Shown: positions 97 through 14,847 of the stretch, in pieces | How the letters are laid out: each line of letters opens with the position of its first letter | Numbering within the stretch: the stretch's first letter is position 1 | IMG/VR virus record: IMGVR_UViG_3300035499_000465 | Span: 64,001-83,514 of that record | Reading direction: 5' to 3' (one strand) | Length of the DNA: 19,514 bases | From: a virus | Position numbers and translations under genes: made by a program | Notes under the pieces: model-generated | What the model was told of the DNA's origin: nothing | Database searches by the model: none | The model's input: the letters and a program-made list of their open reading frames with translations, nothing else

Positions 97-813
97 TTAA
101 CAACTACATCCATTAGAATAAGCTGCATATGGACTACATGTCAAATATGCAGGAACCGGACATGGACGAAGTTCATTTACTAAGTAAGCGTTCTGAGCGC
201 ATTGAGATAACTGGAAGTTAGCTGACTGTAGCTCATTGTTCTTAGCTTCTAATCTATCACGTAACTCTTGCATTGTATTAGCATTGATTAAAGCTCTTGT
301 TTGCTCAGCTTCTTCTCTAATAGCTTGAGTTATTTCACAAGTATTTCGAGAATTATCATATCTAACTGCATCTATATTGCGGTTTGTATCACAGCAACAA
401 GACTGCATTGCATAACGATTATCAGCTAAGTTAGCGTTTACTGTATTAAATCCTTGTGCGACAGAACTAAATCCTGTACACAAATCACGTTGCACATTAC
501 CAAAATTGGTTAATAGAGTTGTGTTGTTAGTATAGAATCCATCACAAAGTCCTTGCTGAATTCCTCTAACACCATTTTCTACATTCTGGAAGTTTAAGTC
601 TTGACTTAAATCTGCTCTAGTTAAGGCGCCCTGAGTTGCAGCTGAATTAGCTCCATTACCCCAGTTGCCTCCCCAACCTCCGCCCATAAAGACGAATAAG
701 AATAGGATTATAATCCACCAAGCTCCCATGCCATCTGTCCAGCCAGTTTCTCCACGATTTCCAGAAGCAGCTGCAATGTCTGATAATGAATATCCTGAAC
801 CCTGATTAAACAT
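97..813 (-). CDS. 238-aa membrane protein: one TM helix (GAWWIIILFLFVFMGG), then a Gly/Trp/Asn-rich stretch (GGGWGGNWGNG), a coiled-coil-like middle, a CCC triplet and a Cys-rich C-terminal tail (CPVPAYLTCSPYAAYSNGCSC). Function unknown.
   Basis: The ORF track gives 97..879, but the ATG at 813..811 is preceded by a perfect AAAGGAGG (829..821) with a 7-nt spacer. The upstream ATG at 879 has no RBS and lies inside the preceding gene, so the start was moved to 813. TAA stop at 97..99. Confidence 0.6.
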   Translation of the reverse strand: MFNQGSGYSLSDIAAASGNRGETGWTDGMGAWWIIILFLFVFMGGGWGGNWGNGANSAATQGALTRADLSQDLNFQNVENGVRGIQQGLCDGFYTNNTTLLTNFGNVQRDLCTGFSSVAQGFNTVNANLADNRYAMQSCCCDTNRNIDAVRYDNSRNTCEITQAIREEAEQTRALINANTMQELRDRLEAKNNELQSANFQLSQCAQNAYLVNELRPCPVPAYLTCSPYAAYSNGCSC

Positions 814-832
814 ATTGGTTCCTCCTTTTAAA

Positions 833-1072
833 TTACCTGAGACCAAGCATTTGTTTAAAATTACTAAATTCTTGGTCAAAATCTACACCTCTTTGTTGGC
901 ATAAATTTCTAGCTAATTGTTCAATACCTTTTGTATCATTAGCTTGCGCCATGCTTAAGAGGTTGTTACCCATAGGAGTTCCCTGCATTTGGCTTAAAAG
1001 ATTCATCATTAATTGTTGTGGATTTCCGCCATTTCTAATTAATTGAATAAACTGCATAGGATTAATATTCAT
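833..1072 (-). CDS. hypothetical 79-aa protein, Gln/Met/Asn-rich, no TM helix
   Basis: ATG at 1072..1070 preceded by AAGGAGGT (spacer about 6 nt). It is tightly packed with its neighbours: its last codons overlap the RBS of the downstream gene. Confidence 0.55.
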   Translation of the reverse strand: MNINPMQFIQLIRNGGNPQQLMMNLLSQMQGTPMGNNLLSMAQANDTKGIEQLARNLCQQRGVDFDQEFSNFKQMLGLR

Positions 1073-1779: not shown

Positions 1780-1811
1780 AAAAAAAAAAGGAACCTCAAT
1801 TAAGAGGTTCC
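1780..1811 (-). terminator. rho-independent terminator closing the radical-SAM cassette. The 8-bp stem ggaacctc (1790..1797) pairs with gaggttcc (1804..1811) across a 6-nt loop, and a run of 10 T follows on the transcribed (minus) strand (A-run 1780..1789 on plus).
   Basis: Perfect inverted repeat plus a U-tract, read directly. The TAA stop (1800..1802) and the last three codons of the 135-aa gene lie inside the hairpin. Confidence 0.7.
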
Positions 1812-2207
1812 CTTATTAACTTTTTGTTCATTTACTGTTGCTTCAATCATATTAGTAATATATATATCTAAATCTCCATAGGCTTCTTTAAGATAATTTT
1901 TAGCATCATCATTTAAAATACTTAATACTTTAGATAAGGTCTCTTGAAAAGCCGCTTCTTGAGCTTCTTTATCAAATGAGCCTTGTTGTTTTAAGCTATC
2001 TACATATGTTTGGTTTGTTGCAATTACGCAAGTCGTAATTGTATTGGTTAACATATCTGTATATTTTTTAGCTAATGCAGAATCAGATTCTGTATTAAAA
2101 GCTTCATTTTTAGCTTGAATGTATTTAACTAGATAAGTAGTTAAAACTCCAAGAAGAGGAATAATACATACCTCAAAAATTTTAGTTAATAATTCTAACC
2201 AATCCAT
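1800..2207 (-). CDS. 135-aa single-pass membrane protein. It has an N-terminal TM helix (LLTKIFEVCIIPLLGVLTTYLV) and a charged, helical C-terminal domain. It could be a holin-like protein or a cassette accessory or immunity protein.
   Basis: ATG at 2207..2205 with TAAGGAGT 5 nt upstream. It is the last gene before the terminator. The RBS overlaps the stop codon of the 317-aa gene, which suggests translational coupling. Confidence 0.6.
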   Translation of the reverse strand: MDWLELLTKIFEVCIIPLLGVLTTYLVKYIQAKNEAFNTESDSALAKKYTDMLTNTITTCVIATNQTYVDSLKQQGSFDKEAQEAAFQETLSKVLSILNDDAKNYLKEAYGDLDIYITNMIEATVNEQKVNKGTS

Positions 2208-2217
2208 TTTTTACTCC

Positions 2218-3171
2218 TTAATCCATAGAATAATAATTTTTAGGTGTATCAACTATTCCAACTCGAGAAGAATTTTTATCATTAATAAAAATTCCGTCTT
2301 GAGAAACAATTAAAGATAATACTTCAGCTTGACATTCTGGCTTAATAAAATAATATAAATATAATCCTAATAAATCTGAAGATGGAATAGTTCTTCCCTC
2401 TAATTTAAAATATTTATATCCCATCTTATTATATTCTTGCATTTCAGCTCTTGTTAAATTATTTCCTTTACCAAGAACGGAGGGGTGAGTAATATTCTCT
2501 TTAATTTTACATACACCTAAAACATTATAAGTATCTCGTAAATATGTAAGCTGAGCGATTCCAGTTTTTGCATAATGAGTTTTTCTAAAAGAGCAATTTG
2601 AACCGCAAATAGCATTACTTAAAAATTCGCATTTTCCACGCTTCTCTTTTGGAATTGCTTCCAATAATTCCTTATTTTTATTTAAATCATAATCTAAACA
2701 TACTTGATAATAATCTTTATCTAATTCTGCTAAGAAATCAGTAGGATTCGTTAAACGTTTAGTTGTTGAACTAATAATTTTATATCCAGGATAATTTTCT
2801 CTAATATATTGTTCCATAAGAGGAGAATTTACTACAACTTCATTACGGCCATTATCACAAACTTCTAACATTAAATTACCAAATCTGTCATCAAGATGCT
2901 CTTCTGTAATAACTGGATTAGTAAAAATTAATCTTAAAGCTACATTTCTATCTTTATAATCATTAACAACTTCTTCCATATATTCTCTAGTGCAATGCTC
3001 ATAACGAATAAAATTTCGTCCTCCATCCCAAATACAATAATGAAAATTACCAAAACAAGAACTAAAAGCTACATCATCATAAAAAAAATCTCTATGCTGT
3101 TCATATAAATTTAAAAAATATAAGTTCAAAGGTAAATGATCACTCGGTCCAGGTATATTAAAATATAACAT
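2218..3171 (-). CDS. 317-aa cytoplasmic protein, a paralogue of the adjacent 290-aa protein. It has a Cys-containing N-terminal segment (SSCFGNFHYCIWDGGR...EHC) and a C-terminal Cys cluster (CEFLSNAICGSNCSF...C). It may be a degenerate radical-SAM/SPASM-like auxiliary protein or a novel enzyme.
   Basis: ATG at 3171..3169 with AAGGAGG 9 nt upstream. It starts 2 nt after the stop of the 290-aa gene. The N-termini of the two proteins can be aligned (FNIPGP... versus YIIPNFF...). Confidence 0.65.
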   Translation of the reverse strand: MLYFNIPGPSDHLPLNLYFLNLYEQHRDFFYDDVAFSSCFGNFHYCIWDGGRNFIRYEHCTREYMEEVVNDYKDRNVALRLIFTNPVITEEHLDDRFGNLMLEVCDNGRNEVVVNSPLMEQYIRENYPGYKIISSTTKRLTNPTDFLAELDKDYYQVCLDYDLNKNKELLEAIPKEKRGKCEFLSNAICGSNCSFRKTHYAKTGIAQLTYLRDTYNVLGVCKIKENITHPSVLGKGNNLTRAEMQEYNKMGYKYFKLEGRTIPSSDLLGLYLYYFIKPECQAEVLSLIVSQDGIFINDKNSSRVGIVDTPKNYYSMD

Positions 3172-3172
3172 A

Positions 3173-4045
3173 TTATTTATCCTCCTTAATTGCGTTTAAA
3201 ACATCTTCATAAAATTTATAATATTCTATTTCAACATCTCTATTTTGTTCAAGTCTTTCTTGCGCCAATCCATTATGATTTGTGCTAAAACTATTTCCAG
3301 GAATTCTATCTTTCATTGCGGTTCCAAATAAAATATAGTCAGCATTATTTTTAACATAATTTATTTCAGCTATTGCCGTATCTACATCTTTTAGAGTTTG
3401 ACAATTCGGGCAACTAGAAAAAACACTTTGCTCTGAAAAATTTAATGTATTATTATTTTCAAGTTTTATACATCTTTTTAAATTTTTGCACTTATGGCAT
3501 ATTGCCATAGGAGAAAGTAAATAACATTTAAAGATATTTTTATTTTTTAATCCATAACAAGGATTTACATCTGTAGTAATAATACCTTTAATATTATTTG
3601 GATATTGGCTAATTAAAGAATTGATATCTTGAACAGAATGAAACATTGTATAATTTTGATGTAATACGATTTTAATTTTTGGATAAGTTTGTACTAAGTA
3701 TTCAATATATTCTGGAACACTGACTTCCCAATAAAAACGCGAATCTGTTGAAAATTTTTCTAAAATAACTTTTGCCATACAATTTTTGTAATCTGCCGGA
3801 ACAATATTCATATTACCATAATCTAATAAAATCATATCATCAATAATTTTATAAGCTTCCGCTCCGGCAATAAAATCTGGGTATAAAGAAATTTTTTCTC
3901 CTCTAATATTATTTAAGCTACCATTAAAATAAGAAAAAGAATATGTTCCTTGAACTCCAGCAAACTCATGAACTTGAATAAACTCATTAATTAATGCCAT
4001 ATTATATACATAGCTATCAAAAAAATTTGGTATAATATATTTCAT
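3173..4045 (-). CDS. 290-aa cytoplasmic protein, paralogue of the 317-aa protein. It lacks the CxxxCxxC motif but has a C-terminal Cys cluster (NPCYGLKNKNIFKC...CHKCKNLKRC...CPNC) that partially resembles a SPASM/twitch motif.
   Basis: ATG at 4045..4043 with GAAGGAGA 5 nt upstream. Sits immediately downstream of the internal promoter. The Cys spacing was read from the translation. Confidence 0.65.
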   Translation of the reverse strand: MKYIIPNFFDSYVYNMALINEFIQVHEFAGVQGTYSFSYFNGSLNNIRGEKISLYPDFIAGAEAYKIIDDMILLDYGNMNIVPADYKNCMAKVILEKFSTDSRFYWEVSVPEYIEYLVQTYPKIKIVLHQNYTMFHSVQDINSLISQYPNNIKGIITTDVNPCYGLKNKNIFKCYLLSPMAICHKCKNLKRCIKLENNNTLNFSEQSVFSSCPNCQTLKDVDTAIAEINYVKNNADYILFGTAMKDRIPGNSFSTNHNGLAQERLEQNRDVEIEYYKFYEDVLNAIKEDK

Positions 4046-4075: not shown

Positions 4076-4104
4076 ATTATACCAAAAAAAAGTTATTTCG
4101 TCAA
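4076..4104 (-). promoter_or_regulatory. internal sigma-A-type promoter with an extended -10. On the minus strand: TTGACG (-35; plus 4099..4104), a 17-nt spacer, then TGGTATAAT (extended -10; plus 4076..4084).
   Basis: Read directly from the 68-nt gap between the 233-aa and 290-aa genes. The -10 is perfect with the TG extension, the -35 matches at 5 of 6 positions and the spacing is ideal. It would drive the 290/317/135-aa genes. Confidence 0.45.
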
Positions 4105-4113
4105 GTTAAGTGC

Positions 4114-4815
4114 TTAATCAGCAAAATTTAAAGCTTCATCACCTTTGGTTAAAAGACCGCTATTAAAATCACCTTGAGCAAAATCTTGTAAATTTTCATC
4201 ATGAAGTCCTCTTTCAAGGGTATGATCTATAATTCTATTAATACAAACAAATAATTTATCTTGTTGATATAAAGACAATTCTGAACAATCAGTTAATCCG
4301 CAATAAAGTAAAACTGCGATTATCTCAGTATTAAAAATCCTATCTTCAGAAGATACAAAAAAATCATTTAAAATTTTTACAGCTTTTTCTGTTGTTGCTT
4401 CTGGAAAAGGAATTTCTTGTCCAATATAATGTTTAAATATTATATTTTTACAGACTTTAAATAAAGTTTGCTCATAAGTATCTTCTTCTTCAGATTCTGT
4501 TCTAACTTTTAATTCTTTTTCGATTGACGGATCATTATAAAAGCTATTAACAATATGAGCATTATATAATGAAATAAAATTTCTAAAATCAATAGAACGA
4601 ATTCTATCTTCTGGAGAAAATAATATGTAATAAATATAATAAATTAAAATTTCATTACATGGATGTAATACATCAATTACATATCCACTTTGAATAGAAC
4701 CTTTTAAATAAGATTCTACTTGTGGAATATATGAATAATTTTTATCCTCTATAATTGATTTACACATAGAATATAAAAACATATCATCAGAGCGTTGATA
4801 AGACATTTTTGACAT
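4114..4815 (-). CDS. 233-aa acidic cytoplasmic protein of unknown function, part of the radical-SAM cassette
   Basis: ATG at 4815..4813 with GAAAGGAA about 10 nt upstream. It overlaps the 3' end of the upstream radical-SAM gene by 29 nt, suggesting translational coupling. No recognisable motifs. Confidence 0.6.
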   Translation of the reverse strand: MSKMSYQRSDDMFLYSMCKSIIEDKNYSYIPQVESYLKGSIQSGYVIDVLHPCNEILIYYIYYILFSPEDRIRSIDFRNFISLYNAHIVNSFYNDPSIEKELKVRTESEEEDTYEQTLFKVCKNIIFKHYIGQEIPFPEATTEKAVKILNDFFVSSEDRIFNTEIIAVLLYCGLTDCSELSLYQQDKLFVCINRIIDHTLERGLHDENLQDFAQGDFNSGLLTKGDEALNFAD

Positions 4816-6157
4816 TTTTAATGTATTCCTTTCTCTCTTGATTTATTTTATGACTTTTTGCGACAATATCATAACAGTTATATTTTAATGCTACCTCATG
4901 GATAGATTTATAATAAACTTTATACATCTCACAAATTGTATCATTAGCTGTAAATAATTCTCTTTCATTTTCAAATTGAGATCCTAAACATCCTTTAGAA
5001 CAGAAAGATTTTAATTTACAAGCTGCACATTTCATAGTTGAACGATTTGGATTTAAAGTTTTAACTTTAAAAGCTAACATAGGTTTTTCAGCCTGCACCC
5101 CAGTAATTTTAGTATGATCTTCATCTGTTATCAATCTACCAAAAACAAAATTTTCATAACTAGTCCTATGACATGGAACTAATGCTAAATCTCCTAATCT
5201 CCAAATAGGTCCATTTTGAATAGAACAACTCATACTATGAACTGGACTAGGATAATCCAAAAGATCTGGTTGAATTCCTCCATGTTCAGAAAGAAACTGT
5301 TGCGGTCCACCAAACATTCCCAATGTGAAATCTTCAATATCTCCATGATAAATATCTTTAATATTTTTTTCTGCCATATATAATAAGAAGTCATGAAAGC
5401 TTTGAAGATTTTTTTCATCCCATTCATAAGGATCTCTTACATATAAGAACATTGGTAAATCTAAAACTTTTTTTCCATCTGGTCTAGTAATATACATATC
5501 ATATTTTATAATATTGTCAATCCACCAATCATAATTTTCTTTATAATTACGAACAAAATCAGCGGCAACCATAGGATGAAAAGTAAAATCATGTTTTTTA
5601 GCAAATTTAAAAATATTATCATAAAATTCATCAGACTTTCCATTACCATGATGATCTGGTCTAGTAAGCTCTTCCAAATTATTTGGCCCATCGATTGAAA
5701 AACTTAAATATAATGGACATTTTATTTTTTGTAATTTTTCTAACCAAATTTCAACTCTTTGAGTTTTTTCTTCATCTTTAATAAAAGTTCCATTTGTTGG
5801 AACTGAAATCTCTCTATATACATCTGGATAATGAGTTACTTTAAAATCATAAATAATTTGTAAAATGTCCTCCCAAAAGGGAAGCGCAAAAAATTCTCCT
5901 GAAAAGATATTAAAAGTGGTGTAATCATATCCTTCATCATATAAATATTGTAATAATAATTTAAAATTTGTCAAAATTAAATCTTTTTTATTATACTGCG
6001 GTGGATATAATTCTTTACCATGCTTCATTAAATAACAATATTCACATTTTTGATTACAACTTGAAGAAATAATAAATTCTACCATTGGAGCATTTTTACA
6101 ATATCGATCTAAAAAACTATTAAATAAAATATTTTGTTCTTCTTGATAAGTTGCCAT
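4787..6157 (-). CDS. radical SAM enzyme with a C-terminal SPASM domain (456 aa); a peptide/protein-modifying maturase of the anSME/sactisynthase-like family
   Basis: The [4Fe-4S]/SAM motif CNQKCEYCY (CxxxCxxC) lies near residue 34 and a GGE-like SGE is downstream. The C-terminus carries the canonical SPASM signature CAACKLKSFCSKGC (Cx2Cx5Cx3C), with an upstream C..G....C segment and a trailing Cys. ATG at 6157..6155 with AAAGGAGG upstream. It starts 1 nt after the stop of the 480-aa gene. Confidence 0.85.
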   Translation of the reverse strand: MATYQEEQNILFNSFLDRYCKNAPMVEFIISSSCNQKCEYCYLMKHGKELYPPQYNKKDLILTNFKLLLQYLYDEGYDYTTFNIFSGEFFALPFWEDILQIIYDFKVTHYPDVYREISVPTNGTFIKDEEKTQRVEIWLEKLQKIKCPLYLSFSIDGPNNLEELTRPDHHGNGKSDEFYDNIFKFAKKHDFTFHPMVAADFVRNYKENYDWWIDNIIKYDMYITRPDGKKVLDLPMFLYVRDPYEWDEKNLQSFHDFLLYMAEKNIKDIYHGDIEDFTLGMFGGPQQFLSEHGGIQPDLLDYPSPVHSMSCSIQNGPIWRLGDLALVPCHRTSYENFVFGRLITDEDHTKITGVQAEKPMLAFKVKTLNPNRSTMKCAACKLKSFCSKGCLGSQFENERELFTANDTICEMYKVYYKSIHEVALKYNCYDIVAKSHKINQERKEYIKNVKNVLSTL

Positions 6158-6160
6158 GTA

Positions 6161-7603
6161 TTATAAAACCTCCTTTACTTTGTATTCTCTTGCCACTCTA
6201 TCCAGCTCTGAAACAACTATATCCATTGCCCCATTATAAAAAAGTGGAATTTCTAGACAATTTCTAGTTGTCCAAGAGCCATTCATAATATAATTATCTT
6301 GTAAGCAAATAGAATTTTCCATAAAGGCAGGAAGTGTTTTTTCTATTTCAGCAATAGATGTATATTTAGGATCGATTAATCCTGCTTTTGCATATTCTCG
6401 AACAAATAAAATTAAATCTGTATATAAAATTTGATTTGGAGAAGTTTCAAAAGGAACCATCATATTATGTGCTTGGCGCATTTCTTCTGGGGTATATAAC
6501 CAATCTTTTGTATTATGCGCTCCGAAATATTTATCTGATAATCCATTTATTGAACCTTGTTTCTGAACATTATTAGCATATTCAACATATTCATCAAATA
6601 ATCCTCTGTGACACATAGTAAACATTCCTTTTGGAATTGGAACTATATTTCCAGTAAAAGATCCACATCCTCCACCACATTTAGGGTTACGATAACTTTT
6701 TCCTGCTTCTTCAAGGCTTCTATCCACTTGTACAGTTCCACAACGTTTACAAGAACTACGAGAGCTTAAACTTGTTAACCCGGTTATCGCAAGAGGAATT
6801 AATGTAACATCAGATCTCCAACTTTCACAAGTTTCTTGGATATATTTTTGACTATCTAAAATATTCTGATTAATTTTAGCATATGTATAGCCATCTTCTT
6901 TAGTCCATTCTGATGGACTAGCACAATTAAATACACTATTATGATAATTCCATTTTGCATTATTTTCTTTTTGCACTTGATATAATTCAGTGTCAAAAAA
7001 TGTATACCATTTAATACATTTTTCAGGCGTATCTAGAAAATGCATTGTTTCTTTTGATAAAGTTGGTTTAGTATGAACTGATAATATAATTTTTGAAGTA
7101 TCATAATCAATATCACATAAATCTCTAAAATTTTTTAAAAATTTTTCAGTTGTACCTTTACCTCTACCGAAATCATTCATTTCTGGATAGCCATCAATGG
7201 AAATTTGTAAATCAAAATTAAAATATACATTTCCATTATAATATTTCCCAATTTCTTTTAATAAATGCTCAATTATTTTAGCTTGATTTGGGATTGTAAA
7301 ATTAGTAGAAGTCATAATTTTATTAAAATTTGGAAATGCATCAAAATAGGCTTTTATATGGTCTGTAAAACGCTCCATATGTAAAAATGGTTCTCCTCCC
7401 CAAAGAGTAATTCCGTCTATTGTATTTCGAAGCTCTGGATCATAATCTAAAACTTGTTTAATATATTGATCATTTGCAAAATCTTGCTCAAGATCTTTAT
7501 CGATCTGAGCAAGTCCACCTGCGGCATCTTTGCAAATATAACAATATCCACAATTTAAATTACACAAAGCTGTTGTAAATAAAGTCATATTAGAAAAATT
7601 CAT
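6161..7603 (-). CDS. second, distinct radical SAM enzyme (480 aa) with a SPASM/twitch-like C-terminal Cys cluster; partner maturase
   Basis: CNLNCGYCY (CxxxCxxC) at residues 14..22 closely resembles the CNLKCTYCFY-type signature of anaerobic sulfatase-maturase-like SPASM enzymes. The GGEP motif LWGGEPFL is present. The C-terminal half has clustered Cys (C...G....C, CKRC, CGGGC, CHRG). ATG at 7603..7601 with AAGGAGA 5 nt upstream. Confidence 0.85.
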   Translation of the reverse strand: MNFSNMTLFTTALCNLNCGYCYICKDAAGGLAQIDKDLEQDFANDQYIKQVLDYDPELRNTIDGITLWGGEPFLHMERFTDHIKAYFDAFPNFNKIMTSTNFTIPNQAKIIEHLLKEIGKYYNGNVYFNFDLQISIDGYPEMNDFGRGKGTTEKFLKNFRDLCDIDYDTSKIILSVHTKPTLSKETMHFLDTPEKCIKWYTFFDTELYQVQKENNAKWNYHNSVFNCASPSEWTKEDGYTYAKINQNILDSQKYIQETCESWRSDVTLIPLAITGLTSLSSRSSCKRCGTVQVDRSLEEAGKSYRNPKCGGGCGSFTGNIVPIPKGMFTMCHRGLFDEYVEYANNVQKQGSINGLSDKYFGAHNTKDWLYTPEEMRQAHNMMVPFETSPNQILYTDLILFVREYAKAGLIDPKYTSIAEIEKTLPAFMENSICLQDNYIMNGSWTTRNCLEIPLFYNGAMDIVVSELDRVAREYKVKEVL

Positions 7604-7650: not shown

Positions 7651-9075
7651 TTACATATCAATACCTTCAACTTTAAAGGAATCGTAAAAAGTAACAAAAA
7701 ATCCACTAAAATTAGTTGGACAATGCGCTGACTTATTGCTTCCAAAGAAAGTCCCAAAATATGTAGTACAATAACTTCCAAAAGTATAATTTACTGCGGA
7801 ATGATATGTACTAAAAGTTGTAGTTGCAAAATTACTACAATTTCCAGCAAAATTTGTCGTACAAAAATCTCCATAAGTATAATTAACATTTGTAAAAAAT
7901 GTAGCATACTTAGGACTACAATAACTACTACAATGAGTTGCAAAAAAAGTATAATTTACACCATTAAAGAAAGTAGCATATCTAGGATTACAATAACTAC
8001 TACAATGTGCTGCAAAATAAGTATAATTTACACCATTAAAGAAAGTAGCATACTTAGGATTACAATAATTACTACAATGAGTTGCAAAATAAGTATAATT
8101 TACACCATTAAAGAAAGTAGCAAAATTTGTTCCAAAGTTAGTTGCATTTTTAGAAGAGTGAAAAGTTGCATTTTTAGAAGAATGATTTGTGTTACAAACT
8201 GAAATATGATTCGTATCATCTCTGCGGCAACTACTACTATAACTAAAACAATTCCATACTCCAGAATAATAAGTAGAATTTTTAGATTTAAAAAATGTTC
8301 CATGAAAAGTTCCATGAAAAGTAGCATGCTTAGAAGAATGTAATGTATTACAAAAACCACAGAAATTCCCGCAATGAGCTGCAAATGTATAATTCACTCC
8401 ACCAAAAAATGTATTACAAAAACCGCAATAATTTCCACAATGAGCTGCAAATGTATAATTTACTCCACCAAAAAATGTACTATAATTTCCTGTGCAATAA
8501 TTTGAACAAAGAGCAGCAAATGTATAATTTACACTATTAAAAAAAGTAGCATAACGTGCATCACAAAAGCTACTACAATGAGTAGCAAAAAATGTTGAAT
8601 CATGACTACTAAAATAAGTATAATTAACACTAGAGAAAACTGTTGTACATGTTTCTGTAGTGTGACTAGTATTAAAAGCTCCAAAATAAGTCGCGCAGAG
8701 AGGAGTATTCTGCCTATAAGATGTGAAATTATTTGAATTATAAGATCGACAAAGGCTCTCCATATACCCAATCGTTTTTTCAATTATAGAAACATTAGTA
8801 TATGCATTAATAACAACTCCTGCAGTAGCAGATGGCGTTCCAAAAGTTGTAATATTAGCACTATTTAAAAAAGATACTTTATCTTTAGTGTCACTAATTT
8901 GACTAAAAACATTAGTAACTCCAGTTGCAGGGGTAATTGAACTCCCCTGCAAACTTGGAACAGTTAATGACGCAACTCCAGCTGTTGAACGCATTGTATT
9001 TAATCTATTATAAAAATCTGAAATAGTGGACGCAGTAATTGAATTACCTTTATAAAATACTGTTCTTGTCGCCAT
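7651..9075 (-). CDS. 474-aa Cys-rich tandem-repeat protein. It has 26 Cys, 17 His, and many Tyr/Phe/Asn/Thr. About ten 24-aa repeats of the form TFFNGVNYT[YF]FA[AT]HC[SG][NS][YF]C[NS]P[KR]YA follow a 108-aa Ser/Thr-rich, Cys-free N-terminal region. It is the putative substrate or precursor of the adjacent radical-SAM enzymes.
   Basis: ATG at 9075..9073 (RBS GAGAGGG, spacer about 10). The repeats and residue counts were read from the translation; three consecutive units (aa 319..390) are nearly identical. No N-terminal hydrophobic signal. It lies immediately upstream of two radical-SAM/SPASM genes in one operon. Confidence 0.75.
   Translation of the reverse strand: MATRTVFYKGNSITASTISDFYNRLNTMRSTAGVASLTVPSLQGSSITPATGVTNVFSQISDTKDKVSFLNSANITTFGTPSATAGVVINAYTNVSIIEKTIGYMESLCRSYNSNNFTSYRQNTPLCATYFGAFNTSHTTETCTTVFSSVNYTYFSSHDSTFFATHCSSFCDARYATFFNSVNYTFAALCSNYCTGNYSTFFGGVNYTFAAHCGNYCGFCNTFFGGVNYTFAAHCGNFCGFCNTLHSSKHATFHGTFHGTFFKSKNSTYYSGVWNCFSYSSSCRRDDTNHISVCNTNHSSKNATFHSSKNATNFGTNFATFFNGVNYTYFATHCSNYCNPKYATFFNGVNYTYFAAHCSSYCNPRYATFFNGVNYTFFATHCSSYCSPKYATFFTNVNYTYGDFCTTNFAGNCSNFATTTFSTYHSAVNYTFGSYCTTYFGTFFGSNKSAHCPTNFSGFFVTFYDSFKVEGIDM
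7743..8628 (-). repeat. in-frame tandem coding repeats with a period of about 72 bp (24 codons) inside the Cys-rich gene. The most conserved block is 7906..8121.
   Basis: Recurrent DNA strings such as gtataatttacaccattaaagaaagtagcata recur at about 72-bp spacing. These explain the spurious repetitive antisense ORFs at 7801..8202 and 8343..8540. Confidence 0.7.
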
Positions 9076-9483: not shown

Positions 9484-12400
9484 TTATTTAACTTTAATCC
9501 AAATACGACCATTAACTTTTATATTTCCAGTGCCCCAAACTTTATAATCTGGAATTTCAGACACCGTACCAATAATACGATCAGGATATTCTTTAATTTC
9601 TTCTCTTGTCATTAAAGAAACTGTTCCATCAGGACCGGAACAAACCGCATCTCCTGGTTTATATTTTTCTTTATCTTCATATGGATAAGCTAAAACTCTT
9701 CCCGATACAGCCAAAGGAGTTTTACATCGATTAGTTTCTCCAATAGCAAAACCATAAGTATCAGATATAATATTTGCTCCAGGCTGAAGTCTTTTTGTTG
9801 AATATTTAAGAGCTCCATGTCCAGTTTCTATTACACATCTTCCCGCTTCATCTTTAGCTTCAACATATCTAAACTCCGCATAATCATTCCATACTGCTCC
9901 ATATACTTTACTACCAGTTATTGTTCCACTAGCAGTTATATTAGATGAAGTATTCATAGTTCCATTAAAATAACTTGTACCATTTACATATAATTTATAA
10001 CTTGGAGTAGTTCCACTTGAAACCAATTTATTAATATAAACACAATTACTCTTTATCTGTAACGCTGGATTATCAGATCGTGCATTACCATCACTATCAA
10101 GATACCATTGACTGCCACCTTCAACTCTATTTCCAGTCCAGAAAATAAATGATGTAACAGATTGATTATTTACAAAGTTTAAAGCTTCATTACCACCGGT
10201 TCCATAATAAATATATGAATTATATGTACTTCCAGAAGGTCTAAATTCAATAGCTCTTATATTAGATGCATATATGGTTGTATTTGTATAATATGAGTAT
10301 CCGCTAACTTGTAAAGAAGGGACTATTGTAGTTTGAGTATTTGAAGAAGTTGTAATCAAATATGGCGAACTTAATGAAGTTGTGTTAATACCGATTTGAC
10401 TACTTGACATATAAATTGAGCCTGCTGCAGATACTGCATTTACTCCACTAAAATAAGCAGCTCGATTTGCAGTTCCACTATTAAGCGTTGAACTTAATGA
10501 ATAAGAACATTTTGTAATAGTACCAGAACTTAAATACACTGGGGCTGTACTAGATCCAACTGTTGAACTACTTTCTGTTGGAACTCCTGCACTTAAATAC
10601 CATAACTTTGTCCCACTACCTTTGGTCGATGTATATGCGCTAACTGTGGTTCCTGCAGAATAATAAGCTAATGAATTAACAGCTCCACTATTGACAGTTG
10701 CATTTAAACTATAAGTGCAAGCTGTTGGAACTCCTGCATTCCAATAGATTGGATTTGTAGCACTTCCATAAGAATCTGCTGTTCCAACATATAATTTACT
10801 CCATCTGTTTCCGCTTACACCAAGACTTTGAGCATTTGTATTTGTTGCTTCAGCTTTTATAGGAACTATATTACCAGATGTAGTTATTTGAGCACCAATT
10901 CTATTGGCGATAGTATCTGCATTTGCTTCTAAATTTATCGAGCCGTCAGATAATAAATATAGTGTTTCAGTTCCCGCGCTAACTAAACTTTGCATATTAC
11001 TAGCACTTTCACCTGCTCCGACTATAGTCATACCACCACCGCCGATAGAAATTCCATTTCCATAAGCATCAGAAGTATTATCCATAAATCGAATCATAGA
11101 TAAATGTGCATTTGTTCCATAATAATAAATATCGCCTTTTAAAGCAGTAGTACCATTAACATATAATTTATATCCTGTTACTGATCCGCCAATCATCAAG
11201 TTACTTGTTACTTGTAAATATCCACTTGATGATTCAATAATTCTACTTGTATAATCAGATGTACTATTACTAAAATGAAAATCTATATATGGGTTTGGGG
11301 CAGATAATTCAATGAAACCGCTTCCAACATATGTTCCCGCTACTCCGGAAACTCCTGCGGATGTAAAACTTGTACTACTAGAAACAAATAATACATTTGT
11401 ATATGTATTACTCCAATGTAAACTAGCTGTTCCTAAGGTATAACTACCATTACTAGCTGGCTGAATTATTTGTGAAGTTAAAGTATTATTTAATGTTTTA
11501 GCTCCATAAATAGTTTGAGTAGTATTAGTAATTAATCCTGTATGAGAAGAGTCATGAGCTGGAATAGTAACAGTTGTTATTTCTGAACCATTTTTAGCTT
11601 TACCATTTACAATTAAACTTGTTCCATTTGAAGTATTCAACCCTAATGTTGCAATATATCCTGCAACAATACTATTTCCATTAGCATCATTTGTTGCTCT
11701 ATCAGCTAAATAACTTCTATATGCAATATTTGTATTTGATATGGTCTGAGTTATAGTTCCAAGAGTTGTTGTAAATCCAATGCTCCATCCAGTCGCCCAT
11801 TTATCTTGACTATAATTAGTGTATCCAACAGTAAGATCTGAGATAGAAACCTGCGGATAATTCCATGTAGTTGTAGATTCACCAATATAAATTGCGCATT
11901 TACTTCCATCATGTCCAAATCTAACATTTAAATTACTTAAACCATATTCATATTTACCAATAGCTTGCGCAAATACGTTATACCAGCTTGGACTATCACT
12001 ACTATTATAATTATATCCACCAACTAAATATTCCACAGATCTTCCAGTTGAATAATCATAAATAGATACCTTAAAACGCATCATAGTACTAGTCCATGAT
12101 TGCGGCAAAGTAACTTTTAAGTATCCTGTTGCTGTTGAAGAAGTTGTGGCATAACTTCCGCCATCTGGAAAGGCAATATAATAATTAGATTTTCCGACTG
12201 CGGTTGTAGTTAAGTTACCATTTAACCACATTTTACCACTTGTGTTAATAGAAGCAACTCCACCAACACTGTTACGTCTAAATACCCATCCTCTATTATC
12301 TGTATTGCTCATGGTTATATAAGTAGCCCAATCGCCAGTTACATATCCATGTGTACCTGCGCTTGAAGTTTGTCTAAAAGTAATACCATAGTTTATAGGA

Positions 12401-14847
12401 TCATCAGAACCATATAACCCAATACCATAAGCACTTCCACTACCAGTCGTATTTACATTTAGTTGATTTTGAAGTTTTAAACTACATAAATAGCTAGTTC
12501 CAGTATTTATATAGTAAGAACCTGCAGATCCAACATAAATGGTTCCACCTTTAACCTGAAGATTTCCTCCAGTATATACAACTCCACCATTATTATTCAA
12601 ATAAAGTGTACTAGTAGTGGTAGCACTTGCTTTAGCCATAATTTCATTTCCATCTAAAGCTAAATGTGTTCCAGAAATATCTCCAATTAAAACCACTCCA
12701 GATCCGCTCGTACTTGCCTCTGCATCAGTTGTATTACTGAATATTGTAACACCAGAAAAAGTTTTCTTTCCTGCAAAAGTTTGTTCTCCAGTAGAGATTA
12801 AACCTGCGGCACTTGAGGTTGCCATTGGAATTGAAATGGTTGCTTGAACACTTCCACTTGCATATTTACTTTGAATCTTATATGTCGTTCCTGTGGATTC
12901 AGATTGCGCGATTGATGTTAGATATTTGCCATCTGCTGTACTTTTACTATATATATAATCAGTATAATTTCCAGAATGTAATACGGTATAATTAGTTGCT
13001 GTAGAACCCCATGTACGATTGGGAGTAAAATATAATACTCCAGTATTCGCCCACAAAGAATCTACCGTAGTAGAAGTATTGTAGAATTGAATACCTTCAG
13101 CAGCCGAATCACACAAATCTCCAAACTGAATTTGGTTTACATTATAAATATTACTGTTGTTAGCATTAAGTGCTCCACTATTTAATGCATCTGTATATTG
13201 ACTACCTTTTAAAGAGATAACCCCTGTCATCGTTCCGCCTGCAAGAGGCAAGAATGAAGGTTTTATAGTAGTCGTAGTTCCAGTTGCACCGGATTCGCTA
13301 TATCTAACTAAATTAATTGAGGTTCCCGCACTATCAAGAGTAATTGTAGTATTTGGTCCAAGAAAACTTGGTTTTCCAGTGATATTAGACCAAGCTACTG
13401 AAGCTGCAACTCCAGCCGCAAATACTTCATAACCATCTTCGCTTGTTAATTTAGTTTGATCTTTTACAAAGTACATTTTATTGGTTGATGTAACTTTAAC
13501 CACATCACCATTTTGAACACTTGATGTAGTTAATGCCAGACGAGCTGTGTCATCTGCAACTACAACTAATCTTTCTAATGCACCCTGTGGAATATATTTT
13601 ATATCAATTAAATTATTTGAATCTAATGGGGCAAATTTTCCAATAGTAGTTGTAGTTCCATTACCAGTTGTTTGCTCTAATTGGTATTCAGTTCCACTAG
13701 AAATTTTAACACTTTTTAAATAAGTTGATGTAATTGTATTTCCTGAAGCATCTGCAGTTGCCTTAGCAGCAGTTCCTGAGATACTAATACCCCAAGTTCC
13801 AGAGGCTCCAGTTCCATCTTTTTTAACTGTATAAGAAGTATAATTATTTGAAGTTAATAAATGCTCCCAACTTCCCCAAGTTGTATCTCCAGTTGATGTA
13901 CGATGATGTAAACCGTTTGAATCAAAAGCCAATTCATGGGCTGGGCCGCCAGTCCAGTCAGATCCAGAAGCATAAGGTCTAAAAGTCATAACCCCAGAAT
14001 AAGAGCTAGATAAACCTGTTACACTTGCCGCTTTAAAATTAAATTGTATGCCATTTGTTTTTGCATTTAAGCTACTAGGATTAATTACATCATTTCTAGT
14101 ATCTGGACATATTAAATAAGAAGCATAAGTCGCAGTATCTGCATTACCATTTAAGGTTGCCTTAATAGTAGAAGGTAATTTTAAAGTTACATTTGCACTA
14201 CCATTTACTCCAACACCAGAACTAGTATTACTTGCATCGCTATCTTGAATATAAAATAATCTACTTGTAGCCCATGTGCTTGCGGTTGATGCATTTCCCA
14301 CAAAAGTATTTGCAACAACTTTACCATTGTCTCTAATCGCCATTAAGGTTGTCCAAGAACTACCAGAATCTTCGCTTTGTTGAAATTCAAAAACTGAATC
14401 ATCAGTTGTGCTATTATCTACATTTATAATTCTTTGCCAATATAAACCAGAATTCCATGTAATTCCGCTTGCCGTTCCATCAGCAGAGAACTTAAGAGGT
14501 CCACTAAGGGTACCTCCAGTAAGTGCCAAATCTTCGGACGCGTGTCCTGTTAAGCTAGCTTTTATAGTAGAAGGCAGTTTTAAAATAACGTCATTAGTAC
14601 CATTAACTAATGTCGATGGCCCAGAGTTAGTTCCACTATTATCTTTAACAGTGAAATTTCTTGCCGTTATCCATGCATCTGCTAAAGTGCTCATTTTTAC
14701 ACGAGTGTTTGAATCTGTATCGAAATAAATAGAGCCCGTATAACCAGAATTACTGTCTCCACTAATGGCAAAATATACTTTACCAGCTTCTTTAGAACTT
14801 GGTAATTTTGACTCTAAACCTGTAGTAAATTTTACATTATTAGCCAT
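9484..14847 (-). CDS. giant tail fibre / receptor-binding fibre protein (1787 aa). Low-complexity S/T/G/N/Y-rich beta-type composition, with internal modular duplications and a non-repetitive C-terminal globular domain.
   Basis: A single uninterrupted ORF in structural-gene context, with the composition and length typical of phage fibres. Internal duplications: ...ILKLPSTIKASLTGHA versus ...TLKLPSTIKATLNGNA, GYKLYVNGT twice, and AGVPT.C.YSL..T.NSG modules. ATG at 14847; GGAGG upstream with an unusually long spacer of about 14 nt. Confidence 0.8.
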   Translation of the reverse strand: MANNVKFTTGLESKLPSSKEAGKVYFAISGDSNSGYTGSIYFDTDSNTRVKMSTLADAWITARNFTVKDNSGTNSGPSTLVNGTNDVILKLPSTIKASLTGHASEDLALTGGTLSGPLKFSADGTASGITWNSGLYWQRIINVDNSTTDDSVFEFQQSEDSGSSWTTLMAIRDNGKVVANTFVGNASTASTWATSRLFYIQDSDASNTSSGVGVNGSANVTLKLPSTIKATLNGNADTATYASYLICPDTRNDVINPSSLNAKTNGIQFNFKAASVTGLSSSYSGVMTFRPYASGSDWTGGPAHELAFDSNGLHHRTSTGDTTWGSWEHLLTSNNYTSYTVKKDGTGASGTWGISISGTAAKATADASGNTITSTYLKSVKISSGTEYQLEQTTGNGTTTTIGKFAPLDSNNLIDIKYIPQGALERLVVVADDTARLALTTSSVQNGDVVKVTSTNKMYFVKDQTKLTSEDGYEVFAAGVAASVAWSNITGKPSFLGPNTTITLDSAGTSINLVRYSESGATGTTTTIKPSFLPLAGGTMTGVISLKGSQYTDALNSGALNANNSNIYNVNQIQFGDLCDSAAEGIQFYNTSTTVDSLWANTGVLYFTPNRTWGSTATNYTVLHSGNYTDYIYSKSTADGKYLTSIAQSESTGTTYKIQSKYASGSVQATISIPMATSSAAGLISTGEQTFAGKKTFSGVTIFSNTTDAEASTSGSGVVLIGDISGTHLALDGNEIMAKASATTTSTLYLNNNGGVVYTGGNLQVKGGTIYVGSAGSYYINTGTSYLCSLKLQNQLNVNTTGSGSAYGIGLYGSDDPINYGITFRQTSSAGTHGYVTGDWATYITMSNTDNRGWVFRRNSVGGVASINTSGKMWLNGNLTTTAVGKSNYYIAFPDGGSYATTSSTATGYLKVTLPQSWTSTMMRFKVSIYDYSTGRSVEYLVGGYNYNSSDSPSWYNVFAQAIGKYEYGLSNLNVRFGHDGSKCAIYIGESTTTWNYPQVSISDLTVGYTNYSQDKWATGWSIGFTTTLGTITQTISNTNIAYRSYLADRATNDANGNSIVAGYIATLGLNTSNGTSLIVNGKAKNGSEITTVTIPAHDSSHTGLITNTTQTIYGAKTLNNTLTSQIIQPASNGSYTLGTASLHWSNTYTNVLFVSSSTSFTSAGVSGVAGTYVGSGFIELSAPNPYIDFHFSNSTSDYTSRIIESSSGYLQVTSNLMIGGSVTGYKLYVNGTTALKGDIYYYGTNAHLSMIRFMDNTSDAYGNGISIGGGGMTIVGAGESASNMQSLVSAGTETLYLLSDGSINLEANADTIANRIGAQITTSGNIVPIKAEATNTNAQSLGVSGNRWSKLYVGTADSYGSATNPIYWNAGVPTACTYSLNATVNSGAVNSLAYYSAGTTVSAYTSTKGSGTKLWYLSAGVPTESSSTVGSSTAPVYLSSGTITKCSYSLSSTLNSGTANRAAYFSGVNAVSAAGSIYMSSSQIGINTTSLSSPYLITTSSNTQTTIVPSLQVSGYSYYTNTTIYASNIRAIEFRPSGSTYNSYIYYGTGGNEALNFVNNQSVTSFIFWTGNRVEGGSQWYLDSDGNARSDNPALQIKSNCVYINKLVSSGTTPSYKLYVNGTSYFNGTMNTSSNITASGTITGSKVYGAVWNDYAEFRYVEAKDEAGRCVIETGHGALKYSTKRLQPGANIISDTYGFAIGETNRCKTPLAVSGRVLAYPYEDKEKYKPGDAVCSGPDGTVSLMTREEIKEYPDRIIGTVSEIPDYKVWGTGNIKVNGRIWIKVK

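Follow-up and report, generated by a model that had tools for sequence, protein, structure and literature searches.

The U32A-U32B locus

We analysed a stretch of viral DNA of 19,514 nucleotides (positions 64,001 to 83,514 of the IMG/VR record IMGVR_UViG_3300035499_000465; hereafter the window) with a focus on two adjacent genes. They encode proteins of 290 amino acids (aa; 3173..4045, minus strand) and 317 aa (2218..3171, minus strand), and are the two open reading frames (ORFs) that an earlier note, made from the sequence alone, had described as paralogous Cys-cluster proteins. We refer to the first as U32A, a degenerate U32-like paralogue (from its ORF and profile comparison) and the proposed iron-sulphur (Fe-S)-bearing partner subunit, and to the second as U32B, a protein with the TIM-barrel fold of the U32 family and the proposed catalytic subunit. 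All genes of the window are on the minus strand, in the order tail fibre (1787 aa), a 107-aa protein, a 474-aa repeat protein, two radical S-adenosylmethionine (rSAM)/SPASM proteins of 480 and 456 aa, a 233-aa protein, U32A, U32B and a holin.

The U32A gene has a Shine-Dalgarno (SD) sequence, AAGGAG, at 4057-4052, ahead of its ATG at 4045. The SD sequence of the U32B gene, AAGGAGG (3181..3187, minus strand), lies within the 3' end of the U32A gene, whose TAA stop (3175-3173) is separated by one nucleotide (nt) from the U32B ATG (3171-3169). Because of this internal SD sequence and the 1-nt gap between stop and start, the arrangement suggests that the two genes are translationally coupled. Neither protein has a hydrophobic segment (maximal Kyte-Doolittle value over 19 residues below 0.9) or a signal-like N-terminus, and the lack of a hydrophobic segment fits the cytoplasmic location proposed earlier.

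The pair had also been credited with an internal promoter of its own, which stands only in part. A sigma-70-like candidate, TTGACG-17-TGgTATAAT with an extended -10 element (4076..4104, minus strand; a consensus match only, 11/12 matches), is indeed present in the 68-bp gap that separates the U32A gene from the 233-aa gene, and an equivalent element, TTGACA-17-TGgTATAAT, is kept in the closest relative, locus L005. More distant relatives and cassettes do not have the element, the gap there being only 1-31 bp, and promoter-like sites in this AT-rich region are not more numerous than in shuffled sequences (68 vs 58±7). As it is shared with L005 and missing where the gap is 1-31 bp, we regard the element at 4104..4076 as a lineage-specific sequence signal that is a promoter candidate only.

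U32B is a divergent U32-superfamily member

U32B scores 15.4 bits (E=0.012) against the Pfam Peptidase_U32 model (PF01136), the gathering threshold of which is 22.4 bits. In its family, hereafter the 317 family, 7 of the 24 representative members match PF01136 at E<=0.01 (best E=1.3e-5), and the relatives P0114 (23.1 bits) and P0115 (23.3 bits) pass the gathering cut-off. A word-indexed search with U32B recovered 174 homologues, nearly all of them without annotation and from metagenomes of the human-gut type or phage contigs 50-200 kb long. A few carry PF01136, and one is named 'collagenase-like PrtC family protease'. Searches of PDB sequences gave no match for U32A, U32B or the 317-family profile, and megablast of the region against GenBank phages gave none either; tblastn found only three unannotated human-faecal phage contigs, and PHROGs assigns no function to the pair.

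The AlphaFold2 model of U32B, built from an alignment of 118 sequences, is an eight-stranded beta/alpha barrel of high confidence (predicted local distance difference test, pLDDT, 96.1; predicted template modelling score, pTM, 0.93). Its best match in the PDB by two methods is 5D88, to our knowledge the only solved U32 domain; with Foldseek (E=3.5e-7) it is the sole match below 1e-3. This structure is of Mk0906, the U32 peptidase domain of Methanopyrus kandleri, a single-copy archaeal protein of no known function with 14% identity to U32B. In the viral structure library BFVD the first-ranked match is an Escherichia phage OLB35 protein named 'Peptidase' (E=1.2e-11). The proteins matched by fold are U32 and generic TIM barrels and not rSAM enzymes. 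Based on the barrel model, the matches to 5D88 and the OLB35 protein and the relatives above the PF01136 cut-off, we conclude that U32B is a divergent member of the U32 superfamily. Its subfamily lies at the edge of the Pfam model, since U32B itself is below the cut-off and only P0114 and P0115 are above it.

U32A as a full-length paralogue of U32B

A word-indexed search with U32A matched only itself. On the contig of every relative a gene of 263-290 aa precedes the U32-like gene, and these neighbours align to U32A at 28-44% identity. An exhaustive HMMER search with a profile of this U32A family (hereafter the 290 family) found 930 representative clusters at E<=1e-3, among them members of the 317 family at about 1e-30. 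Direct BLASTP of U32A against U32B is marginal (E=0.11, over the N-terminal 130 residues), whereas hhalign of the two family profiles aligns 280 columns with 100% probability (E=1.5e-43). Pairwise BLASTP alone would be insufficient; because the profile-profile alignment spans 280 columns, we conclude at the sequence level that U32A and U32B are full-length paralogues. The paralogy proposed in the earlier note is thus real, and goes beyond the N-terminal likeness seen there.

In the model of U32A, which is of low confidence (see below), the order of strands and helices at residues 72-201 parallels that of the U32B model, and in phylogenetic trees the A and B lineages branch congruently. A single in-frame U32A-U32B fusion, P0155 (595 aa), was found at L063:2733-4520. 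Locus L063 also contains a third U32B-like gene (4501-5400), which follows the fusion.

Conserved ligand sets and barrel-face residues

The Cys residues of U32A are C89, C163, C174, C183, C186, C192, C212 and C215, and those of U32B are C39, C46, C60, C105, C158, C181, C189, C193, C221 and C280. The patterns reported earlier were mostly recovered: C-x10-C, CxxCx5C and CxxC in U32A, and CEFLSNAICGSNC...C in U32B, the supposed N-terminal C-x7-C of U32B being in fact C39-x6-C46. As had been stated, neither protein contains a CxxxCxxC motif, and neither matches Radical_SAM, Fer4_12 or SPASM.

Conservation singles out four residues in each family. The U32B motif, C189-x3-C193-x5-H199-x21-C221 (2509..2607, minus strand, coordinates checked), follows E182-F-L-x-N-A-I; in the 317 family C189, C193 and C221 are each present in 118/118 sequences and H199 in 117/118. 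The U32A motif is C183-x2-C186-x5-C192-x19-C212 (3410..3499, minus strand, codon coordinates checked). All four of its residues are invariant in 12 sequences of the 290 family; among 24 sequences C183 and C212 are found in 24, C186 in 23 and C192 in 22, and among 128 representatives the counts are 123 for C183, 93 for C186 (with variable spacing), 124 for C192 and 125 for C212. The motif of the 290 family thus takes the form CX2-3CX5CX19C. The earlier claim of a Cys cluster is upheld as a conserved ligand set in each family, and fails for C163, C174 and C215 of U32A and for C39, C60 and C181 of U32B, which are variable (C181 is kept in only 47/118 sequences). Chance clustering of Cys residues was considered and rejected: the ligands are invariant across families with a mean column identity of 44-51%.

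Both motifs follow strand beta7 and come after E-F-L-x-N-A-I. In the profile alignment H199 of U32B falls in the same column as C192 of the U32A family, and in the two of 24 sequences of the 290 family that do not have C192 the residue is His. This interchange of Cys and His argues that the column is a metal-ligand position. In Pfam profile coordinates C189 of U32B lies near C169 of UbiU, and the E-F-L-x-N-A-I segment before C189 resembles the PROSITE signature of U32, ExFxxG[SA][LIVM]Cx4GxC. Each four-residue set provides candidate ligands, judged by conservation, on which an Fe-S cluster may be held.

Further invariants of the 317 family are R52, R80, S134-S135-T136, K138, D160, N164, E182, R196, Y200, K256 and R260, all of them directly after predicted beta strands of the AlphaFold2 model. 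The C-terminal ends of the strands of a TIM barrel are its usual active-site face. In U32A most of the barrel-face residues that are invariant in the 317 family are not conserved, and the copy in the window has also lost the E and N before the first motif Cys. Since these residues are kept in U32B and mostly not in U32A, the pair resembles a catalytic subunit with a degenerate partner.

The pair is an optional part of an rSAM cassette

To place the pair in its genomic context, 42 viral loci (found with the U32B profile), 6 contigs of metagenome-assembled genomes, 80 loci found with the profile of the 480-aa rSAM protein and several metagenome contigs were scanned with family hidden Markov models, reading through TAG where needed, and dereplicated at 90% identity. 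U32A and U32B are adjacent in all 55 loci with a pair, which represent 24 lineages. Twin rSAM genes lie just upstream of the pair in 20/20 lineages with enough upstream sequence, the other 4 being on truncated contigs. This answers the question of co-occurrence with the rSAM pair that the earlier note had raised. The paired form was seen nowhere but in the rSAM cassette in these 20 lineages, and its gene order is constant. At least nine twin-rSAM loci with more than 4.9 kb of downstream sequence have no U32 pair. As twin-rSAM cassettes exist without the pair while the pair, wherever this could be assessed, is with the cassette, we conclude that it is an optional add-on dependent on the rSAM cassette, a pattern expected of a tailoring enzyme.

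In the window the core enzymes of the cassette are two rSAM/SPASM maturase-like proteins (456 aa, 4787-6157; 480 aa, 6161-7603; minus strand), each matching Pfam Radical_SAM at E of about 4e-9 and both far below the cut-offs of the NCBIfam peptide-maturase models YhhB, PapB, GggB and anSME. Their presumed substrate is the 474-aa precursor-like repeat protein (7651..9075, minus strand), in which a conserved N-terminal domain of ~100 aa (W..LY..LN..R...) is followed by hypervariable repeats rich in N, S, T, G and aromatic residues. In every cassette inspected, a homologous N-domain with a variable repeat region is encoded directly upstream of the first rSAM gene, the 'precursor' proteins being 170-490 aa long (168 aa in the L030 homologue); the repeats are Cys-rich only in the version of the window. 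This protein resembles a large precursor for rSAM crosslinking at multiple sites, possibly of the triceptide-like kind.

Homologues of the repeat protein are encoded at L012:4459-5700, L006:4271-5731, L008:5063-5758, L030:5326-5832, L048:4117-4974 and L025:11386-12195, and close relatives share the C-terminal tail 'Y/K-V-E-G-I/V-D-F/M'. The repeat region is full of N-x-S/T-like and aromatic-x-N/S triplets, and the gene adjoins tail-fibre genes.

On a 114-kb phage contig (L030, IMGVR_UViG_2940228231_000002) a 3-deoxy-7-phosphoheptulonate (DAHP) synthase is encoded two genes downstream of the pair (11499-12317, plus strand); it is a bona fide member of its family (NF006421, 391 bits; TIGR01361, 350 bits). 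DAHP synthase catalyses the first step of the shikimate pathway, by which prephenate is made, and a link to shikimate or prephenate supply is possible. On a 189-kb phage contig (L061:8138-9190, plus strand) the gene directly upstream of U32A encodes an aldo-keto-reductase domain with a fused ferredoxin-like 2x[4Fe-4S] segment (CxxCxxCxxxCP), and its product is a candidate redox partner.

U32B-like proteins also form a clade of solo genes (L035, L037, L039-L047 and L051, which are viral, and L059/L060:2261-3205) without a partner and without rSAM genes. They have the same C/C/H/C motif (C-x3-C-x5-H-x~20-C). In large phages they are found among genes for DNA methylase, an ICEA-like protein and UvrD/PIF1 helicases, and one solo case has a bacterial-like TrkH/TrkA/NUDIX neighbourhood beside a prophage.

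A UbiU/UbiV-like pair as the favoured reading

Characterised U32 proteins offer a model for the phage pair. UbiU and UbiV form a U32 heterodimer in which each subunit has one [4Fe-4S] cluster on four conserved Cys residues, and which is needed for O2-independent hydroxylation (PMC6747719), prephenate being the O donor (PMC10990095). The U32 proteins RlhA and TrhP are linked to the hydroxylation of aromatic (hetero)cycles in RNA, which is likewise Fe-S- and prephenate-linked and O2-independent (PMC10990095, PMC11574389). As in the phage locus, UbiU and UbiV (YhbU and YhbV, the ubiquinone hydroxylase of Proteobacteria) are encoded by two adjacent genes for paralogous U32 proteins of ~300 aa, of which one is near consensus and the other divergent (in E. 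coli, 228 vs 38 bits against PF01136). Each has four conserved cluster ligands, and UbiU-V works in anaerobiosis. The differences are also clear. No pairwise sequence similarity is detectable between the two pairs, and the ligand spacing is CX3CX5HX21C / CX2CX5CX19C in the phage pair and CX6CX16CX38C / CXnCX12CX3C in UbiU-V. In addition, the phage pair has one His ligand, is phage-encoded and belongs to a protein-maturation cassette, not to a quinone pathway. UbiU-V has a UbiT/SCP2 partner, whereas no SCP2-like match of the UbiT type was found among the cassette proteins scanned. RlhA (ho5C2501 of 23S rRNA) and TrhP (ho5U34 of tRNA) share the U32 superfamily with the phage pair; they are single or internally duplicated proteins with the canonical CX6CX15CX3/4C motif, encoded by housekeeping bacterial genes, and act on RNA.

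By this analogy we hold, with moderate confidence, that U32A and U32B are a highly divergent, phage-specific U32 pair of the UbiU/UbiV-like kind, performing O2-independent oxidative tailoring of the repeat protein. U32B would be the catalytic subunit, with its invariant polar residues at the C-terminal strand ends of the barrel and with C189/C193/H199/C221; U32A would carry a [4Fe-4S] cluster on its four-Cys set and serve in electron transfer or as a scaffold. Together they would form an Fe-S heterodimer that oxidises the rSAM-modified repeat protein without O2, most likely by hydroxylation, in an anaerobic gut host. As in UbiU-V, RlhA and TrhP, hydroxylation could take place at an aromatic or otherwise activated carbon with a prephenate-type O donor. 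Fe-S binding, the heterodimer, the substrate and the chemistry of the pair are thus what we infer from known systems. The earlier note had offered a new enzyme pair tailoring the repeat protein as its second option, and the strict co-location with the precursor and twin-rSAM cassette fits that option. Accessory modules are also known from rSAM/SPASM pathways of ribosomally synthesised peptides that are modified after translation (RiPPs), in which optional tailoring enzymes, such as the accessory oxidases and hydroxylases of triceptide, ranthipeptide and darobactin-type clusters, come after the core rSAM maturases and the precursor. These pathways differ in using a short peptide precursor, compared with a phage protein of 170-490 aa beside tail-fibre genes here.

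The fold of U32B, the paralogy, the conservation of the ligands, the coupling of the genes and their co-occurrence with the cassette are what the analysis itself shows. The translational coupling, the congruent branching, the P0155 fusion, the DAHP synthase of L030 and the redox gene of L061 are weakly consistent with a hydroxylase heterodimer. A more specific proposal is tentative, and we consider it possible but doubtful: the pair may be the first protein-acting U32 Fe-S oxidase, using a site-differentiated 3Cys-1His cluster and a prephenate-type donor for O2-free hydroxylation of an rSAM-crosslinked virion repeat protein. Possible targets would be Tyr, Phe or His rings, or positions needed for ether links, and a phage-owned DAHP synthase of the L030 type would then feed the O donor.

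It should be noted that a number of observations weigh against an oxidative, protein-directed U32 pair. Both proteins miss the Pfam U32 threshold, U32A having no PF01136 match at all, and hhalign gave no significant alignment of the 317 family with E. coli UbiU or UbiV as single sequences. Neither protein of the pair has the canonical U32 motif CX6CX15CX3/4C (PMC6747719), the spacing being different and one ligand being His. The AlphaFold2 model of U32A, from a 12-sequence alignment, is poor (pLDDT 51), too poor for a fold search. The P0155 fusion is on a single contig of 2.8x coverage, where a 1-nt assembly error over TAATAATG could account for the junction, TTTATAATAATGATT. DAHP synthase is found in no other fetched locus (1 of about 140, L030 only). 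The aromatic, N/S/T and Cys content of the precursors shows no clear difference between cassettes with and without the pair. Because the solo U32B clade occurs in DNA-metabolism or bacterial contexts, the U32B family is not intrinsically tied to the cassette. Finally, we know of no U32 enzyme with a demonstrated protein substrate, and even for UbiU-V a direct hydroxylase activity is yet to be reconstituted in vitro (PMC10990095).

Alternative explanations

The pair could instead be a redox relay, an Fe-S electron conduit that brings electrons to both rSAM/SPASM enzymes or takes them away, without itself acting chemically on the repeat protein. Only cluster-type ligands are common to U32A and U32B, the aldo-keto-reductase/ferredoxin-like gene adjoins the pair in L061, and the pair is optional, as a host-replaceable reductant system would be. 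We nonetheless find this unlikely: the ~15 invariant polar residues at the mouth of the U32B barrel are far beyond what a ferredoxin-like protein needs, and rSAM enzymes are normally served by a host flavodoxin or ferredoxin.

Somewhat less probable still is a processing peptidase that removes the conserved N-domain, or trims the repeat protein, after rSAM modification. The historical name 'U32 collagenase/PrtC', carried over in the annotation of one homologue, speaks for it, as does the fact that no other protease is visible in the cassette while RiPP-like pathways usually need one. However, U32 has no defined catalytic nucleophile or metal-protease motif, and what is invariant is a motif of the Cys/His cluster type, as in Fe-S U32 oxidases (PMC6747719, PMC11574389). 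Cassettes without the pair would need processing equally, so that its optionality would be unexplained, and the precursor resembles a structural protein with conserved N- and C-termini rather than a leader-core peptide.

Hydroxylation of pyrimidines in host or phage RNA or DNA, in the manner of RlhA and TrhP, would make the position in the cassette incidental. The characterised non-quinone U32 enzymes do act on rRNA and tRNA (PMC10990095, PMC11574389), and in other phages the solo U32B homologues have DNA methylase and helicase genes around them. The paired form, however, occurs only in the rSAM cassette, in constant order in 20/20 assessable lineages, and in the window it lies in a late or structural-lysis module between tail-fibre and holin genes. 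We therefore consider this reading improbable.

The first proposal of the earlier note, degenerate radical-SAM/SPASM/twitch-like scaffold or recognition proteins, was suggested by the Cys-rich C-terminal halves and the adjoining rSAM/SPASM enzymes, but such ancestry is very improbable and we reject it as contradicted by profiles and fold: neither family has an rSAM or SPASM profile match, the fold is a U32 barrel, the conserved ligands lie in the U32 signature region after beta7 and not in a C-terminal SPASM-like extension, and several of the suggestive Cys residues are not conserved. Clear homology to an unrelated, well-known enzyme family, together with no Cys conservation, had been named there as what would speak against the proposal; homology to another named family (U32) is clear, and the Cys residues are conserved. 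Overall, the earlier reading is partly supported.

Other features of the locus and its relatives

The gene directly downstream of U32B encodes a holin (1800..2207, minus strand; phrog_13712, E=4.5e-32) and is probably in the same transcription unit as U32A and U32B. A strong intrinsic-terminator-like hairpin with an 11-bp stem and a T-run (1787..1814, minus strand) closes the U32A-U32B-holin unit. Further on, a 260-aa protein (97-879, minus strand; phrog_16490) has a hydrophobic segment rich in Gly and Trp, AWWIIILFLFVFMGGGWGGNWGNG, and its C-terminus is Cys-rich, with CSC as the last residues. Proteins of this type are kept near the holin in relatives (for example L012:12996-13766, minus strand), and the one in the window may belong to the lysis module.

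A further gene always separates the second rSAM gene from U32A, in the window that of the 233-aa protein (4114..4815, minus strand), to which we assign no function. It overlaps the 456-aa rSAM gene by 29 nt, is fast-evolving and has no Pfam or NCBIfam match above threshold. A protein of 120-230 aa occupies this slot in all cassettes, too divergent for linking by jackhmmer, and the 233-aa protein may be a recognition or chaperone component. An antisense ORF of 133 aa inside the repeat-protein gene (7801-8202, plus strand) most likely arises from the repeats and does not represent a gene.

Some cassettes contain further tailoring genes. A fusion of radical-SAM and glycosyltransferase-family-2 domains (653-689 aa) is found in some of them (L008:2717-4678, L030:2324-4393), a third U32-like copy is present at L030:1423-2310 and in L032 and L089, and in L008 a YcaO-domain protein is encoded downstream of the pair (12504-13862). 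In L026, L028, L029, L032, L036, L061 and L062 the U32, rSAM and neighbouring genes contain in-frame TAG, and no other stop (for example L061:8138-9190); therefore, these loci use amber-recoded late genes. The genes of the window read cleanly with table 11.

Significance

The U32 'peptidases' form a large family, most of it uncharacterised, in which only quinone and RNA hydroxylations are known, and in the literature searched we found no report of in-vitro activity or of a holo-structure for a U32 protein, nor a description of a U32 protein in RiPP, rSAM or phage structural contexts. What is new here is a phage-borne U32 Fe-S oxidase-like pair with an altered Cys3His ligand set, probably directed at a protein. 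Such a pair would extend the U32 family to viruses, to a Cys3His ligand variant and probably to protein substrates. The linked candidate substrate, together with natural cassettes that have or do not have the pair, would provide a tractable system for the study of O2-independent oxidation, and the cassette of the window would represent a multi-enzyme maturation pathway for a hypervariable repeat protein of anaerobic gut phages.

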